From positions 1 through 64,000 of IMG/VR virus record IMGVR_UViG_3300034127_000005: a stretch of DNA of 64,000 nt; one strand, 5' to 3'. Numbering within the stretch: position 1 is the stretch's first letter; each line of letters starts with the position of its first letter. Positions 30,282 to 34,179 of this stretch are shown piece after piece. Below the pieces are notes generated by a model. That model did not search any database and was not told where the DNA came from. It worked only from the letters and a program-made list of their open reading frames with translations. A program made the position numbers and the translations under genes. The stretch comes from a virus (taxonomy: Duplodnaviria > Caudoviricetes).

Positions 30282-30611
30282 ATGACAGCTCCAGTGCAAA
30301 AGAACAAAGGTGGGCGTCCTTCCAATGCTGAGCTTGCTGCTCGTGGAATGACAAAGACCGATCTAGAAATTGGCTTGAAGACGCTGAAGAGATACTTCGG
30401 TAAGTCGGTAGAGAAGATTGTTGAGCTAGCCTCCAATCCTCAGTTGCCTGTTGACAAGCAGTTCAAAATGAATCAAGATGTGATCAACATGTTCATGGCA
30501 ATGCTGAAAGCAGATGCAATGCTCAAGCAGGCCATGGCAAGAGATGGCGATAACAGTGATATGGATACAGACACAGAAGATAAGCCAAAAGGCGTTGTGT
30601 TCGATTTCTGA
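30282..30611 (+). CDS. hypothetical protein, possibly terminase small subunit
   Basis: KNKGGRPS N-terminus, helical, upstream of the packaging module. Confidence 0.5.
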   Translation: MTAPVQKNKGGRPSNAELAARGMTKTDLEIGLKTLKRYFGKSVEKIVELASNPQLPVDKQFKMNQDVINMFMAMLKADAMLKQAMARDGDNSDMDTDTEDKPKGVVFDF

Positions 30612-30620
30612 AAATAGCTG

Positions 30621-30648
30621 TTGACAAGCTTCCGAAAACATGTAGAAT
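30621..30648 (+). promoter_or_regulatory. sigma70 promoter of the tRNA array
   Basis: TTGACA-16-TAGAAT. Confidence 0.8.
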
Positions 30649-30657
30649 GACCAACAT

Positions 30658-30735
30658 GAATCGCTAGCTCAATTGGTTAGTAGCATCGGACTTTTAATCC
30701 GGCGGTTCCGAGTTCGAGTCTCGGGCGGTTCACCA
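30658..30735 (+). tRNA. tRNA-Lys(TTT)
   Basis: cloverleaf, loop CTTTTAA, CCA. Confidence 0.92.
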
Positions 30736-30741
30736 AATTAT

Positions 30742-30831
30742 AGCGGATTGAGAGAGTGACTTAATCTAACGCTTTGCTAAAGCGTCGGGTCAGAAATGGC
30801 CCCGTAGGTTTGAATCCTACATCCGCTGCCA
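30742..30831 (+). tRNA. tRNA-Ser(GCT)
   Basis: loop TTGCTAA, long variable arm, GCCA. Confidence 0.88.
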
Positions 30832-30836
30832 GATTA

Positions 30837-30928
30837 TCGGGTCGCTCCCGAGAAGAAAACTACACGAGGAATTGAGCCAGCGCGCCTCGATGCATTGTAG
30901 GGGTACAAGTCCCAAGTACGCTGGTCAA
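30837..30928 (+). ncRNA. structured spacer RNA (pseudoknot-capable, T-loop-like hairpin)
   Basis: CTACA/TGTAG, CGAGG/CCTCG, TTGA-CCAGCG/CGCTGG-TCAA, GG-TACAAGT-CC. Confidence 0.4.
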
Positions 30929-30943
30929 GAATTTTAGATTTAT

Positions 30944-31032
30944 GGAGAGTAGCACCGATGGCGGTACACAGTCTTGAAAACTGCGCCACTGGTTAGTAGC
31001 CGGTGAGGGTTCGATTCCTTTACTCTCCGCCA
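30944..31032 (+). tRNA. tRNA-Ser(TGA)
   Basis: loop CTTGAAA, long variable arm, GCCA. Confidence 0.9.
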
Positions 31033-31038
31033 AACAAA

Positions 31039-31114
31039 GCTTCATTGACGCAACGGTAGACGTGTCTGTTTCAAACGCAGAATGTTCGGGGTTCGAATCC
31101 CTGATGAAGCACCA
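31039..31114 (+). tRNA. tRNA-Leu(CAA), short variable loop
   Basis: TCTGT-TTCAAAC-GCAGA, ACCA. Confidence 0.85.
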
Positions 31115-31124
31115 AACAAACAAC

Positions 31125-31201
31125 GCCCTCGTAGCCCAACTGGGAGAGGCAGCGCGCTTAGAACGCGTACAGTGAGAGTTCGAATCTCTCTGAGGGCACC
31201 A
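31125..31201 (+). tRNA. tRNA-Leu(TAG), short variable loop
   Basis: GCGCG-CTTAGAA-CGCGT, ACCA. Confidence 0.88.
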
Positions 31202-31207
31202 AACAAT

Positions 31208-31282
31208 GGACGATTGGCGAATCGGGAACGCGACGGTCTTTGACACCGTTATGAGCTGGCTCGACACCAGCATCGTCTTCCA
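31208..31282 (+). tRNA. tRNA-Gln(TTG)
   Basis: ACGGT-CTTTGAC-ACCGT. Confidence 0.85.
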
Positions 31283-31284
31283 AA

Positions 31285-31403
31285 TTTGAATGACTGGCCT
31301 TGCCTTATAGCCGAAGTGTCTGTTATTGTTGTGGAGATAAAATAGCAGAACGACTACAGGAGGGGCAGTGTCCACTACTCGTAACCTTGAGTCATTCAAA
31401 CCA
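31285..31403 (+). ncRNA. non-tRNA structured RNA with an 11-bp terminal stem and 3' CCA
   Basis: TTTGAATGACT/AGTCATTCAAA-CCA; internal TCTGTTATT/AATAGCAGA hairpin. Confidence 0.55.
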
Positions 31404-31460
31404 AACAACCTGAAGCTTCAAGCGCCTTGGGATGTAGCATAAGAAACCAACTCTTATGTG

Positions 31461-31489
31461 TTGACGCACAGACGACTGCGTGTTATAAA
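31461..31489 (+). promoter_or_regulatory. internal sigma70 promoter
   Basis: TTGACG-17-TATAAA with extended TGn. Confidence 0.7.
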
Positions 31490-31506
31490 TGTCGTCCTCG
31501 AATAAA

Positions 31507-31584
31507 GGGTCGGTAATGTTTAATTGGCAAACGGCGGGATTCCAAATCCTTGCATTCTCTGTTCGAATCGGAGTCGGCTCGCCA
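31507..31584 (+). tRNA. tRNA-Trp(CCA)
   Basis: loop TTCCAAA, GCCA. Confidence 0.85.
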
Positions 31585-31589
31585 AGCAA

Positions 31590-31664
31590 GTTGGATTGGT
31601 ATATGGGATTGTGCCTCGGCCTTCTAAGCCGATTAGACTGGTTCGAATCCAGTATCCAACACCA
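31590..31664 (+). tRNA. tRNA-Arg(TCT)
   Basis: TCGGC-CTTCTAA-GCCGA. Confidence 0.88.
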
Positions 31665-31688
31665 AATGAAATAGTTTTCAAAATATGC

Positions 31689-31716
31689 TTGACAAAGTTC
31701 ATTTGTCGTATACAAT
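31689..31716 (+). promoter_or_regulatory. internal sigma70 promoter
   Basis: TTGACA-16-TACAAT. Confidence 0.75.
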
Positions 31717-31736
31717 GGGGACATAAGCAAGACAAT

Positions 31737-31811
31737 AGTGAGTTGGCCGATTGGATTAGGCTCGGGCCTACGAAGCCCGCTAGGTAGGTTCGATCCCTAC
31801 ACCCACTACCA
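31737..31811 (+). tRNA. tRNA-Arg(ACG)
   Basis: CGGGC-CTACGAA-GCCCG. Confidence 0.88.
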
Positions 31812-31817
31812 GATTAT

Positions 31818-31890
31818 GTTGATTGTCGTCTAGAGGATAGGACACCGGCACTGACGCTGGAGAGATGGGTTCGAGTCCCGTTGATCAACA
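31818..31890 (+). pseudogene. tRNA-Glu-like gene with a 6-nt anticodon loop (ACTGAC), no encoded CCA
   Basis: intact acceptor, D and T arms; CCGGC-ACTGAC-GCTGG. Confidence 0.65.
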
Positions 31891-31902
31891 CTTGATTTAA
31901 AT

Positions 31903-31979
31903 GCTCTGCTCGTCTACGAGGTTTAGGATATGAGGTTTTCACCCTCATGAACGGGGTTCGAGTCCCCGGCAGAGTACCA
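31903..31979 (+). tRNA. tRNA-Glu(TTC)
   Basis: TGAGG-TTTTCAC-CCTCA. Confidence 0.9.
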
Positions 31980-31986
31980 AACAAAT

Positions 31987-32066
31987 GACTTATGGTACTG
32001 CATGGTGTGGTTGCTCCCCTGTCACGGGAGATGTTCAGATGGGATCGTTACCCATATAGGTCGCCA
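31987..32066 (+). tRNA. tRNA-Asp(GTC)
   Basis: CTCCC-CTGTCAC-GGGAG; atypical T-loop ATCGTTA. Confidence 0.82.
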
Positions 32067-32104
32067 AACAATCTCTGGTTAGGGATATAAAACTTTAACC
32101 ACAT

Positions 32105-32180
32105 GCCGCTATAGCTCAGATGGTAGAGCGCTTGCCTTGTAAGCAAGATGTCCCGAGTTCGATTCTTGGTGGCGGCACCA
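32105..32180 (+). tRNA. tRNA-Thr(TGT)
   Basis: canonical cloverleaf. Confidence 0.95.
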
Positions 32181-32187
32181 AATTAAA

Positions 32188-32261
32188 TGCCGGATAGTTC
32201 AAAAGTAGAACGCAGAGCTGATAACTCTAAAACGAAGGAGCGTTACCTTCTCTGGCGACCA
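32188..32261 (+). tRNA. tRNA-Ile(GAT)
   Basis: loop CTGATAA; atypical T-loop AGCGTTA. Confidence 0.82.
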
Positions 32262-32280
32262 ATTAGAAACACCAAATAGA

Positions 32281-32361
32281 TGCGAGAGCGCTAAGACGCA
32301 AGGCAAGTGTCAACCGGCTCATAACCGGACGCAAGAGGTTCGATTCCTCCTTTCGCAACCA
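32281..32361 (+). tRNA. tRNA-Met(CAT), possibly initiator-like
   Basis: CCGG-CTCATAA-CCGG; T1-A72 acceptor. Confidence 0.82.
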
Positions 32362-32379
32362 AACATGTGCTCCCCACGT

Positions 32380-32421
32380 GTACAGCCAGATAGAGTGTGC
32401 TGTATAAATATAGTCTCTATC
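32380..32421 (+). ncRNA. H-type pseudoknot in a tRNA spacer
   Basis: GTACAGC/GCTGTAT and GATAGAG/CTCTATC. Confidence 0.5.
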
Positions 32422-32429
32422 AGAATTAT

Positions 32430-32506
32430 AGGAAATGATCTCACCGGGCGTGGGTCGCGGACTGTTAATCCGCAGATGGGAGGTTCGAGTCCTCTATTTC
32501 CTGCCA
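32430..32506 (+). tRNA. tRNA-Asn(GTT)
   Basis: GCGGA-CTGTTAA-TCCGC. Confidence 0.88.
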
Positions 32507-32508
32507 AT

Positions 32509-32583
32509 TTTGGAAACTCGCGACGTGATGCTACGCGGGTATAAAGGAAGTGCAGTACGGGTTCATAGCGAACTTCCTCCAAA
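32509..32583 (+). ncRNA. three-way-junction spacer RNA
   Basis: TTTGGA/TCCAAA closing ACTCGCG/CGCGGGT and GGAAGT/ACTTCC hairpins. Confidence 0.5.
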
Positions 32584-32592
32584 GCAACACAT

Positions 32593-32677
32593 GGTTCATT
32601 GCGTCGAGCGGCGAAGACGACCGGCTGTAACCCGGCACAACGATACATCCTAGGTTCGAGTCCTAGATGAACCACCA
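32593..32677 (+). tRNA. tRNA-Tyr(GTA)
   Basis: CCGG-CTGTAAC-CCGG, long variable arm. Confidence 0.88.
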
Positions 32678-32798
32678 AACAGTAGTGAACATGTGATGCT
32701 AGTTCGTAATGTCAAAAGTCTGCTTGCAGAGCAAAGGCAACTAATGTAAAGGGAAAAGGCGATCCCTGACTCAAAAGAGTTGAAACCTCCAATTTATT

Positions 32799-32873
32799 CT
32801 CGGGGTATCTCAGAGGCAGAGAGCTGGGTTTGGAACCTAGAGGTCGAGATTTCGAAATTCTCCCCCGTGACCA
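32799..32873 (+). tRNA. tRNA-Pro(TGG)
   Basis: CTGGG-TTTGGAA-CCTAG. Confidence 0.88.
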
Positions 32874-32875
32874 AT

Positions 32876-32986
32876 TTTACTGAAAAGGGTACATTAAGTC
32901 TTTAGGACTGAAGTGTTCGTCCCAGCCACGAATGAGGTATTGAGCCTCGCTAGTGGGAGAATGGCAAGTCCTTAACTGGCAGTAGA
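32876..32986 (+). ncRNA. multibranch spacer RNA
   Basis: TTTACTG/CAGTAGA, AGGACT/AGTCCT, TTCGT/ACGAA, GAGG/CCTC; CCCA/TGGG pseudoknot possible. Confidence 0.45.
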
Positions 32987-32997
32987 CGCGATACAAT

Positions 32998-33071
32998 GGG
33001 CTGTAAGAATTTCGATAGTTCGCTACGCTTGCACCGTAGAAGGCGGGGTTTGACTCCCCGACGGTCCACCA
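32998..33071 (+). tRNA. tRNA-Ala(TGC)
   Basis: G3-U70 pair, CTACG-CTTGCAC-CGTAG, ACCA. Confidence 0.85.
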
Positions 33072-33087
33072 AATATAGGAGTGTATA

Positions 33088-33258
33088 ATGAGAATCAAAA
33101 GTGGCCTACGCCAGAACAAGATTGAATATACTCGCAAAAGAAACAAATGTCCTTGCTGCACAAGATTGAACTGTCGAGAAGAACTTCTCCGGCGATTGGA
33201 GTGCAAAGAGGCTGAGCAAGAGTTACAAAGCAATACGCTTGACTGTGAGGCTGTGTAG
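33088..33258 (+). CDS. 56-aa basic Cys-rich protein inside the tRNA array
   Basis: TAGGAG RBS; MRIKSGLRQNKIEYTRKRNKCPCCTRLNC... Confidence 0.6.
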   Translation: MRIKSGLRQNKIEYTRKRNKCPCCTRLNCREELLRRLECKEAEQELQSNTLDCEAV

Positions 33259-33318
33259 TCTGGGACTACCTTCCGGCTGTGACCCGGTTGATGCAGATCG
33301 AAACTGCACCTCACCCCA
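33245..33318 (+). tRNA. tRNA-His(GTG)
   Basis: CCGG-CTGTGAC-CCGG, C73 discriminator. Confidence 0.8.
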
Positions 33319-33324
33319 ATTTAT

Positions 33325-33400
33325 GTCCTTCTTGCCTGAGCGGCTAGGGTGCTGATTGCAAACCAGTAATAGATCGGTTCAACTCCGATAGAAGGCTCCA
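33325..33400 (+). tRNA. tRNA-Cys(GCA)
   Basis: loop TTGCAAA, U73-CCA. Confidence 0.82.
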
Positions 33401-33405
33401 AATTT

Positions 33406-33478
33406 GCAGGTACGCACAAGGTGTGTCGCCGGCCTTCCAAGCCGTGTAGCAAGGGTTCGATTCCCTTTATCTGCTCCA
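33406..33478 (+). tRNA. tRNA-Gly(TCC)
   Basis: CGGC-CTTCCAA-GCCG. Confidence 0.88.
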
Positions 33479-33483
33479 ATTAT

Positions 33484-33557
33484 GCTTCGTTCGTCTAATG
33501 GTAGGGCCGCTGCTTTACACGCAGTAGACGGAAGTTCGATTCTTTCACGAAGCACCA
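33484..33557 (+). tRNA. tRNA-Val(TAC)
   Basis: GCTGC-TTTACAC-GCAGT. Confidence 0.9.
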
Positions 33558-33561
33558 AATT

Positions 33562-33637
33562 GCATTCTAAGCTAACTTGGTAGAAGCGCTGGCTTGAAAC
33601 CCCAGATGACTTGGTTCGATTCCAAGAGATTGCACCA
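33562..33637 (+). tRNA. tRNA-Phe(GAA)
   Basis: loop TTGAAAC, ACCA. Confidence 0.82.
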
Positions 33638-33642
33638 ATTAT

Positions 33643-33716
33643 AGCCCGATAGCTCAACAGGTAGAGTACCGTGGATATGCTGCGGAGGATGTGGTTCGAT
33701 TCCACAGAGGCGACCA
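33643..33716 (+). pseudogene. aberrant tRNA-like gene (loop GATATGC, nominal TAT anticodon)
   Basis: canonical D and T arms and CCA, poor acceptor stem, no U33. Confidence 0.6.
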
Positions 33717-33722
33717 AACAAT

Positions 33723-33801
33723 GAGCTGTTCGTCTAACTAAGACACCCACACCACTCACGGTGTCAATGGGAAATCGGGTGAAAGTCCTGAATGCTCACC
33801 A
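33723..33801 (+). pseudogene. tRNA-like gene with an extended anticodon arm and 6-nt loop ACTCAC
   Basis: GAGC/GCTC-ACCA, GTCT/AGAC D arm, ACACC-ACTCAC-GGTGT, T-arm loop TGAAAGT. Confidence 0.55.
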
Positions 33802-33892
33802 AATGACTCAGACGACTTATCCACTCGGACATTGCTTCGTGCAATCAATCTAAGTCTGTCTGTCATACATAAGCTCGAATAGAGCTGAAAGC

Positions 33893-33925
33893 AAGCCCCG
33901 GCTCTAACGAGTTGGGGCTTTTCTC
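33893..33925 (+). terminator. terminator of the tRNA operon
   Basis: AAGCCCCGGCTC-TAAC-GAGTTGGGGCTT-TTCT. Confidence 0.85.
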
Positions 33926-33954
33926 GTTCTCATCATTTAATAAGGAAAATAACA

Positions 33955-34179
33955 ATGGCTACTACTGCACAAAAAGTAACACTGGTATCTCAATTGGGAT
34001 TGCTGGAAGGTATCAAGGCTGGCTTGCTAGATGGAACAGCTTCTGCTGCTTCTGTAGCGGCTATCGCTGCTCTGACAACTGTTACAACTCCAGATGGCAG
34101 TGATCCTGCAACGACTCAGACTCTGGCTAACGCCTTGAAAGTTAAAGTCAATGCCATCATTGCTGCACTGAAAGCTTAA
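33955..34179 (+). CDS. small virion protein (head-fibre-like)
   Basis: C-terminal LANALKVKVNAIIAALKA helix. Confidence 0.6.
   Translation: MATTAQKVTLVSQLGLLEGIKAGLLDGTASAASVAAIAALTTVTTPDGSDPATTQTLANALKVKVNAIIAALKA

Follow-up and report, generated by a model that had tools for sequence, protein, structure and literature searches.

Predicted structured RNA families among the tRNA genes of a Pseudomonas phage

In the genome record of bacteriophage T4, rnaD (119 nucleotides (nt)) and rnaC (139 nt) are annotated as small stable RNAs situated directly after tRNA-Arg, and the roles of these two RNAs, RNAC (species 1) and RNAD (species 2), are still without explanation according to a review of T4 (PMC3014915). 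More generally, phage tRNA clusters are usually annotated as tRNAs accompanied by 'hypothetical' mini-open reading frames (mini-ORFs). In this report, we analyzed a tRNA array located at positions 30658-33637, on the + strand, of a 64,000-nt stretch (hereafter, the window) of IMG/VR record IMGVR_UViG_3300034127_000005; the array lies within a Pseudomonas phage of about 95 kilobases (kb). The principal result is that its spacers hold at least five uncatalogued, lineage-specific families of predicted structured non-tRNA RNAs, designated G1, G6, G8 (a hairpin module), G9 and G11c, in addition to a young element, G2a. These elements exist, hold their position and keep their base pairs through compensating changes, and none of them matches a catalogued Rfam family. 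The locus is therefore best described as a multi-family form of a known, unexplained class of stable RNAs in phage tRNA clusters, encountered so far in one clade of Pseudomonas phages.

The T4 RNAs and the modules of the window have in common that they are non-tRNA RNAs encoded on the same strand as the tRNAs of a phage cluster: the T4 pair lies 1-6 nt from the neighbouring tRNAs, and the modules of the window are structured and abut tRNAs as well. Resemblances extend to details, as a canonical T arm lies close to the 3' end of rnaC and G2a has tRNA-like ends, and rnaD starts with a hairpin of 4 base pairs (bp) that has the same GGG-UCGCU-(A)CC core as the first hairpin of G1 (hp1). This 5' hairpin is the best match of the G1 covariance model in 8 kb of T4, but at 10 bits and an E-value of 0.26, and, across T-even genera, it falls within the stretch of rnaD that is best conserved; hairpins with a UCGCU loop are not enriched in the window generally (7 versus 4.6 +/- 2.2). 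That the hairpin is a true module shared by G1 and RNAD is possible, with the odds somewhat against it. Unlike G1, rnaD adopts a rod-like fold that has neither the P2/P3 pseudoknot nor the T-like hairpin, and the two have no overall homology in sequence or fold. Moreover, T4 has two such RNAs at the end of its cluster, whereas the five or more families here are scattered among the tRNAs, and the two phages belong to unrelated families and infect unrelated hosts.

Bacterial tRNA operons also yield small RNAs derived from their spacers (Escherichia coli 3'ETS-leuZ and internal spacers), which are released by RNase E and act by pairing with other small RNAs together with Hfq. G11c has the position of such a 3'-spacer-derived RNA, between the last tRNA and the intrinsic terminator at 33893-33920, so that G11c and the terminator occupy the 3' external spacer and resemble a leftover of tRNA operon processing. 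Unlike in the 3'ETS-leuZ type, neither a target nor a seed stands out here, and conservation does not extend to the unpaired stretch of G11c.

Structured, pseudoknotted RNAs abutting phage tRNA genes bring to mind the HDV (hepatitis delta virus)-like theta ribozymes, which adjoin tRNAs in phage genomes (PMC10879173), and a preliminary description of this DNA had suggested ribozymes among the products of the array. No non-tRNA cassette matches an Rfam ribozyme (E<=10), the HDV family included, and the supported topologies are not HDV-like: those of G1 and G9 differ from the nested double pseudoknot, which begins at the cleavage site and has a catalytic C in J4/2, although no dedicated descriptor search was run. 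In an HDV-like fold, the first nucleotides form P1, and beyond the 3' strand of P1 come P4 and the 3' strand of P2. In contrast, G1 starts with a local hairpin, and the closing stem of G9 is followed by a short tail only. Furthermore, since CCA is encoded, the tRNAs of the array need no ribozyme to generate their 3' ends. The same description had also proposed antitoxin mimics. Type III antitoxin RNAs of the ToxI kind consist of direct repeats, about 30-40 nt each and in tandem, beside a gene for an endoribonuclease toxin; there are no tandem repeats in 30600-33950, and therefore no ToxI-like array, and the genes that flank the array are a conserved ORF of 109 amino acids, an ORF of 74 amino acids and the terminase.

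A last comparison concerns tRNA-like structures with a pseudoknotted acceptor helix, as present in plant viruses and in the tRNA-like domain of transfer-messenger RNA (tmRNA). Like these, G1 has a T-arm-like hairpin followed by a strand that pairs via a pseudoknot, and G2a has an acceptor-type stem, an abutting hairpin and a CCA end. Unlike them, G1 has no CCA and no canonical T loop, and the order of its strands is different.

Conservation and covariation of the spacer elements

The source phage belongs to the phiPsa374/KIL/psageK4/Bitten group of Pseudomonas phages, whose genomes are about 95-100 kb long. About 45 related arrays were gathered from phage records and IMG/VR, where the terminase and the upstream ORF served to locate them, and each gap of the window array was searched against them by nhmmer; L-numbers (L001, L022 and so on) denote the loci of related arrays collected for comparison.

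Folding energies of the gaps were scored as z against dinucleotide shuffles. Values of -3.6, -2.9 and -2.1 were obtained for G6 (32362-32429, the gap first placed at 32380), G11c (33803-33866) and G2a (31285-31404), respectively, compared with -1.0 for G7 (gap at 32509), -0.75 for G9 (32876), -0.7 for G8 (32685) and -0.2 for G1 (30837). Such weak scores imply that the property of folding, which had been attributed to each of at least seven cassettes, does not by itself exceed chance. As energy supports the gaps only partly, the case rests on comparison: it confirms the elements at 32380 and 33803, and lends to 30837, 32876 and the 5' half of 32685 the support that energy did not provide. Six of the seven gaps hold real elements, energy beats chance in three only, and G7 is unsupported. 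Other parts of the preliminary description fared better: terminal stems do begin shortly after the upstream CCA, at a distance of 1-5 nt for 31285, 32362, 32509, 32876 and 33803, and the comparison with related phage arrays that it had proposed uncovered compensating changes in G1, G6, G9 and G11c. Its concern that the spacers might be unconserved and no more stable than shuffled sequence does not apply to these four, while G7 is unconserved with its z of -1.0. Overall, the modules are as conserved as the tRNAs or more so. A search with the Rfam 15 covariance models, run without gathering cutoffs over the region as a whole and over every gap (E<=10), returned tRNAs and noise only, and no match to any cassette, including G1, G2a and G9; with the tRNA family (RF00005) in particular, G1, G2a, G6, G7, G8, G9 and G11c had no match even at this threshold.

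G1 (30833-30934, + strand) is predicted to be a pseudoknotted RNA, on the basis of a covariance model and of compensating variants. In the window, its helices are hp1 (30837-30841/30847-30851, loop UCGCU), P1 (30860-30863/30897-30900), P2 (30865-30869/30885-30889) and P3 (30874-30882/30919-30926); P3 pairs the loop of P2 with the 3' tail, forming an H-type pseudoknot, and a T-arm-like hairpin stands at 30901-30913. The fold common to 20 distinct sequences comprises a hairpin of 5-6 bp whose UCGC(U/A) loop is invariant, an A-rich single strand that is also conserved, a short P1, a P2 of 5-8 bp, P3, an optional extra hairpin and an invariant hairpin, GGGG-UAnnAGU-CCC. The covariance model locates G1 in 21 loci, with a single copy in each array, and tRNA-Ser(UGA/AGA) follows immediately in every case. 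Distinct compensating versions number 10 for hp1 and 14 for each of P2 and P3. When own partner strands were compared with swapped ones, swaps were equal or better in 0 (hp1), 0 (P2) and 3 (P3) of 10000 permutations; kinship inflates these figures, yet the variety of helix versions is independent of kinship.

Three other readings of G1 were rejected. A protein-coding role finds no support on the minus strand, the sole strand compared, where no frame is consistently open and stop-free frames occur at about chance frequency. A class II or otherwise odd tRNA, suggested by the ARAGORN call 'Pro(cgg)' in L001 and L003, is a fold with mismatches in its stems and is at odds with the covarying helices. 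Finally, G9 might have been taken for a second copy of G1, since a 13-nt motif is common to both in the window; the model gives one G1 per array, and the motif falls in a variable arm of the other G9 elements.

G6 (32362-32429, + strand) is the most conserved of the modules: it was found in 24 loci, at 84-99% identity to the window copy, compared to a median of 68-79% for tRNAs, and 30 of its about 70 columns are invariant. Lying directly 5' of tRNA-Asn, it consists in the window of a 7-bp hairpin (32363-32381) followed by S1 (32381-32386/32399-32404) and S2 (32389-32395/32415-32421); the part after the first hairpin would form either an H-type pseudoknot (S1 and S2) or an extended hairpin. 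In 16 distinct sequences, 87% of cells are paired, versus 23-57% when partners are slid. The changes that leave S2 paired are two paired deletions, a single wobble and a single U-A to C-G exchange; covariation is seen in the first hairpin as well. Since S1 never varies, the pseudoknot is predicted and not backed by covariation. Between tRNA-Met and tRNA-Asn, L001, L003, L022 and L045 carry, in place of the first G6 hairpin, a GGG-U(C/U)GCU-CCC hairpin resembling hp1 of G1, and a different element stands downstream of it.

G9 (32874-32992, + strand) is, from its alignment, a multi-arm RNA with a 7-bp closing stem, a covarying arm A and an invariant 3' tail beyond the closing stem. Each of its 12 distinct members starts at the CCA of tRNA-Pro. 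The closing stem is never broken, with a G-C/A-U exchange in five sequences, and double changes occur in 6 of the 15 predicted pairs. Arm A shows several double changes.

G11c (33803-33866, + strand) is a 3'-external element in which an outer stem with one bulge surrounds a 5-bp hairpin. It is present in 31 loci (23 distinct), always between the terminator and the last tRNA, whichever tRNA that is. Its inner hairpin shows an A-U/U-A exchange in nine sequences and G-C in two, and its outer stem exchanges U-A for G-C and G.U for A-U; in Bitten and ventosus, the shape is kept with different letters.

The conserved part of G8 is its 5' module (32681-32745, + strand), composed of a 4-bp hairpin with the 11-nt loop A-Y-G-U-K-A-U-G-C-U-A (32691-32701) and of two small hairpins; the 3' part (32746-32798) is not conserved. 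The 5' half is also present 3' of tRNA-Tyr in L005, L022, L044 and L036. Among five instances of the hairpin, one being the copy in G7, five 4-bp stem combinations carry one and the same 11-nt loop, which marks the loop as selected. G7 (32509-32586, + strand) is a spacer specific to the window; apart from this loop motif in common with G8 (32523-32533), it has no relative in the about 45 arrays.

G2a (31285-31404, + strand) is an RNA of 120 nt in which a 10-bp terminal stem, a 5-bp T-like hairpin that abuts it and a 3' CCA surround a long hairpin body unlike that of a tRNA. Compared with its sole relative (L016/L032, 87% identity), three compensating double changes and three disruptions were counted, by hand reading of the alignment on the predicted fold.

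Possible fates of the modules

How such modules might be produced is suggested by their surroundings. The region would be one tRNA transcription block, with several promoters and one terminator, and the passengers among its 23 tRNAs would be the structured RNA families, three non-decoding genes derived from tRNAs, and ordinary signals with one small protein gene. On its upstream side, each module is bordered by the CCA of a tRNA and an A/U-rich linker; on the other side, it meets either the terminator or the next tRNA at its 5' end. In tRNA maturation, RNase P makes the 5' ends, and RNase E and exonucleases act after CCA. Because the modules are flanked by tRNA ends, the host enzymes that mature the tRNAs would cut the modules out too, RNase P acting at tRNA 5' ends, and RNase E and 3' exonucleases after CCA. 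The products would be discrete RNAs of 60-125 nt, protected by end-closing stems, and their fate would be that of RNAC and RNAD in the tRNA cluster of T4; G11c with the terminator would become a 3'-spacer-derived small RNA. Co-transcription, excision and stability of the modules are what we infer from this layout, and we give a probability of about 0.6 to the excision of the modules as discrete small RNAs during tRNA maturation. The families, which have firm comparative support, are defined and cheap targets, in culturable phages of plant-pathogenic and soil Pseudomonas, that could reveal what the RNAC/RNAD class of RNAs does.

Several points weigh against this interpretation. Four of the seven gaps initially named (30837, 32509, 32685 and 32876) are no more stable than shuffles, and conservation among the about 45 arrays is lacking for G7, the 3' half of G8 and 32067-32104. 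G2a rests on two sequences, and relatedness of the sequences compared inflates permutation statistics. The extreme conservation of the G6 sequence may also reflect a role at the DNA level. Lastly, within IMG/VR the families occur in a single phage clade, the only one returned by pattern scans for G1, G11c and G6, and they are therefore without independent recurrence.

The explanation that competes best with excision, though a rather unlikely one in our opinion, is that the modules act in cis only, as insulators, as sites of RNase entry or blocking, or as leaders and trailers that order maturation and protect tRNA ends, the excised pieces being degraded. The neighbours of the modules are indeed constant (G1 with tRNA-Ser UGA/AGA, G6 with tRNA-Asn, G9 with tRNA-Pro CCA, and G11c with the last tRNA and the terminator), and the more distant arrays L041-L047 manage without the modules. 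However, constant neighbours are expected anyway, because gene order is syntenic overall. A pseudoknot and invariant loops on changing stems also exceed the needs of an insulator, and most tRNAs of the array have linkers of 5-10 nt without any such element.

Fixed loops carried by changing stems, together with the near-invariant G6, are the reason to prefer an action in trans over one restricted to cis. As a guess, the fixed loops (UCGCU, the 11-nt loop and the T-like loop) and G6 bind a host or phage factor in trans. In its strongest version, this idea makes the operon a factory of trans-acting RNAs that titrate host RNA-binding or tRNA-targeting factors, with the UCGCU hairpin as a functional module in common with RNAD of T4; the set of RNAs would then comprise the tRNA-minihelix-like pseudoknot RNA G1, the near-invariant G6 pseudoknot, the fixed-loop hairpins, and tRNA mimics with anticodon loops of 5 or 6 nt. 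We consider this version doubtful. As for the decoys that the preliminary description had listed among the possible products, such a role is conceivable only for the tRNA-like genes with anticodon loops of 5 or 6 nt.

It is improbable that G6 is a signal in DNA, and not an RNA, for instance a promoter or operator, a packaging or recombination site, or the target of a homing endonuclease. Its invariant columns go beyond structural need, it contains a TATAAA-like stretch, genes for homing endonucleases are numerous in related arrays, and the end of the array is a recombination breakpoint (see below); yet six phages have a spoiled -10-like hexamer (TCTAAA) and a good -35 is missing, which led us to reject G6 as a promoter, and the paired deletions and the U-A to C-G exchange keep S2 while the first hairpin covaries.

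The least probable proposal is that the spacers are decayed tRNA genes and neutral filler whose folds are as expected from composition: although the z-scores of G1, G7, G8 and G9 are within one standard deviation of shuffles, three genes (31818-31891, 33644-33716 and 33722-33802) are clearly derived from tRNAs, the G1 hairpin at 30901-30913 is 85% identical to T arms of the same array, and G7 and parts of G8 have no relatives, this proposal stands for G7 but is refuted by covariation for G1, G6, G9 and G11c, in which compensating changes are many and independent and which are conserved at least as well as the tRNAs, and the tRNA-like genes keep their aberrant loops across phages.

tRNA genes, tRNA-like genes and signals of the array

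Twenty-three decoding tRNA genes occupy 30658-33637 on the + strand, as detected with ARAGORN and Rfam: Lys, Ser (two), Leu (two), Gln, Trp, Arg (two), Glu, Asp, Thr, Ile, Met, Asn, Tyr, Pro, Ala, His, Cys, Gly, Val and Phe. The number of 23 first reported thus holds, with 19 tRNAs found by ARAGORN at default settings and four at relaxed settings only, and so does the coverage of all 20 amino acids. The relaxed search (-ps80), which gave the 23 decoding tRNAs and one gene with a 6-nt anticodon loop, added the four atypical tRNAs of the array: Trp (31507-31584), Ile (32188-32258, also contributed by the Rfam search), Met (32284-32357) and His (33244-33317). CCA is encoded by every tRNA and is followed by A/T-rich linkers, adjacent tRNAs being 5-10 nt apart. 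The tRNA with a CAT anticodon (32281-32361) has an expanded D region, in which a hairpin of about 26 nt replaces the normal D arm throughout the clade; called Met by ARAGORN, it could be Met, initiator or Ile2. ARAGORN found no tmRNA in the region.

Three further genes are derived from tRNAs and cannot decode normally, all on the + strand, and the aberrant anticodon loop of each is kept in other phages. The first (31818-31891, '???' in ARAGORN) has a 6-nt anticodon loop and no CCA; the same loop is found in L037, and a 7-nt version in L018. The second (33644-33716), present in 12 loci, has a CCA, normal D and T arms, a 6-bp stem with a 5-nt loop as anticodon arm, and an acceptor of 3-5 bp; it matches positions 8-63 only of the Rfam tRNA model, at 23.8 bits for a threshold of 29. 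In its family (L001, L005, L010, L011, L016, L017 and L044), the letters at the anticodon position vary even between close relatives (TAT, TAA, TTA, TAG) in an otherwise fixed arm, and if the sixth pair forms, just 5 nt are left for the loop. The third (33722-33802), with relatives in L025, L004 and L006, has a CCA and a 6-nt anticodon loop, and no part of it is better conserved than the anticodon arm. The existence of conserved tRNA-like genes whose anticodon loops are aberrant bears on current work on phage tRNAs and host anticodon nucleases.

Some of the presumed cassettes are ordinary signals, namely sigma-70-type promoters, a terminator and a small protein gene, all on the + strand. A promoter precedes the array at 30621-30648 (TTGACA-16-TAGAAT, 11 matches of 12), and internal ones precede tRNA-Trp at 31461-31489 (TTGACG-17-TATAAA, conserved in at least seven phages) and tRNA-Arg(ACG) at 31689-31716 (TTGACA-16-TACAAT, 11 of 12, conserved in L022). 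A 6-bp helix (31471-31476/31491-31496) spans the tRNA-Trp promoter, with one strand in the spacer and the other just past the -10, and changes in step between relatives (GACGAC/GTCGTC versus GGAGAC/GTCTCC); it could form in read-through RNA or in DNA only. The intrinsic terminator has a 12-bp stem and a T run (z -5.2), and is preceded by a small hairpin at 33872-33886. The internal promoters, the 56-amino acid ORF described below and the two CCA-ended tRNA-like genes after tRNA-Phe had been missing from the preliminary description.

In all relatives, the array is located between a conserved ORF of about 105 amino acids, of which the window copy is at 30282-30611 (109 amino acids, by alignment), and head-fibre and terminase genes; downstream in the window, an ORF of 74 amino acids at 33955-34179, annotated as head fiber protein at this place in Bitten, is followed by the terminase according to the annotation of relatives. 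Database phages match 30600-33950 in tRNA-sized pieces only, at 80-95% identity. The identity of single tRNAs to one relative ranges from 58% to 100% in a patchwork (comparisons with L001, L002, L004, L005, L016, L017, L022 and L025), which points to frequent swapping of single cassettes between arrays. Two IMG/VR contigs, L007 (1-1104) and L019 (1-801), align with the window at about 87% identity beyond the terminator, and show no tRNAs before the point of divergence. Because their similarity ends exactly at the array end (33942), this boundary is considered a recombination breakpoint, and for the same reason these contigs, in spite of a 99% identical terminase protein, yielded no further array copies.

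In published relatives, several 'hypothetical protein' mini-coding sequences overlie structured RNA elements (L001 1604-1699, L003 3564-3725 and others), one such overlapping call being the minus-strand coding sequence over G1 in Bitten; these calls are probably spurious. The small protein gene of the window (33088-33258), identified by its translation, encodes a basic protein of 56 amino acids with a KCPCC motif, has a ribosome-binding site, and its stop codon overlaps the first bases of tRNA-His. A 49-amino acid homologue is encoded in L042 (8762-8911), between tRNA-Pro and tRNA-Gly.

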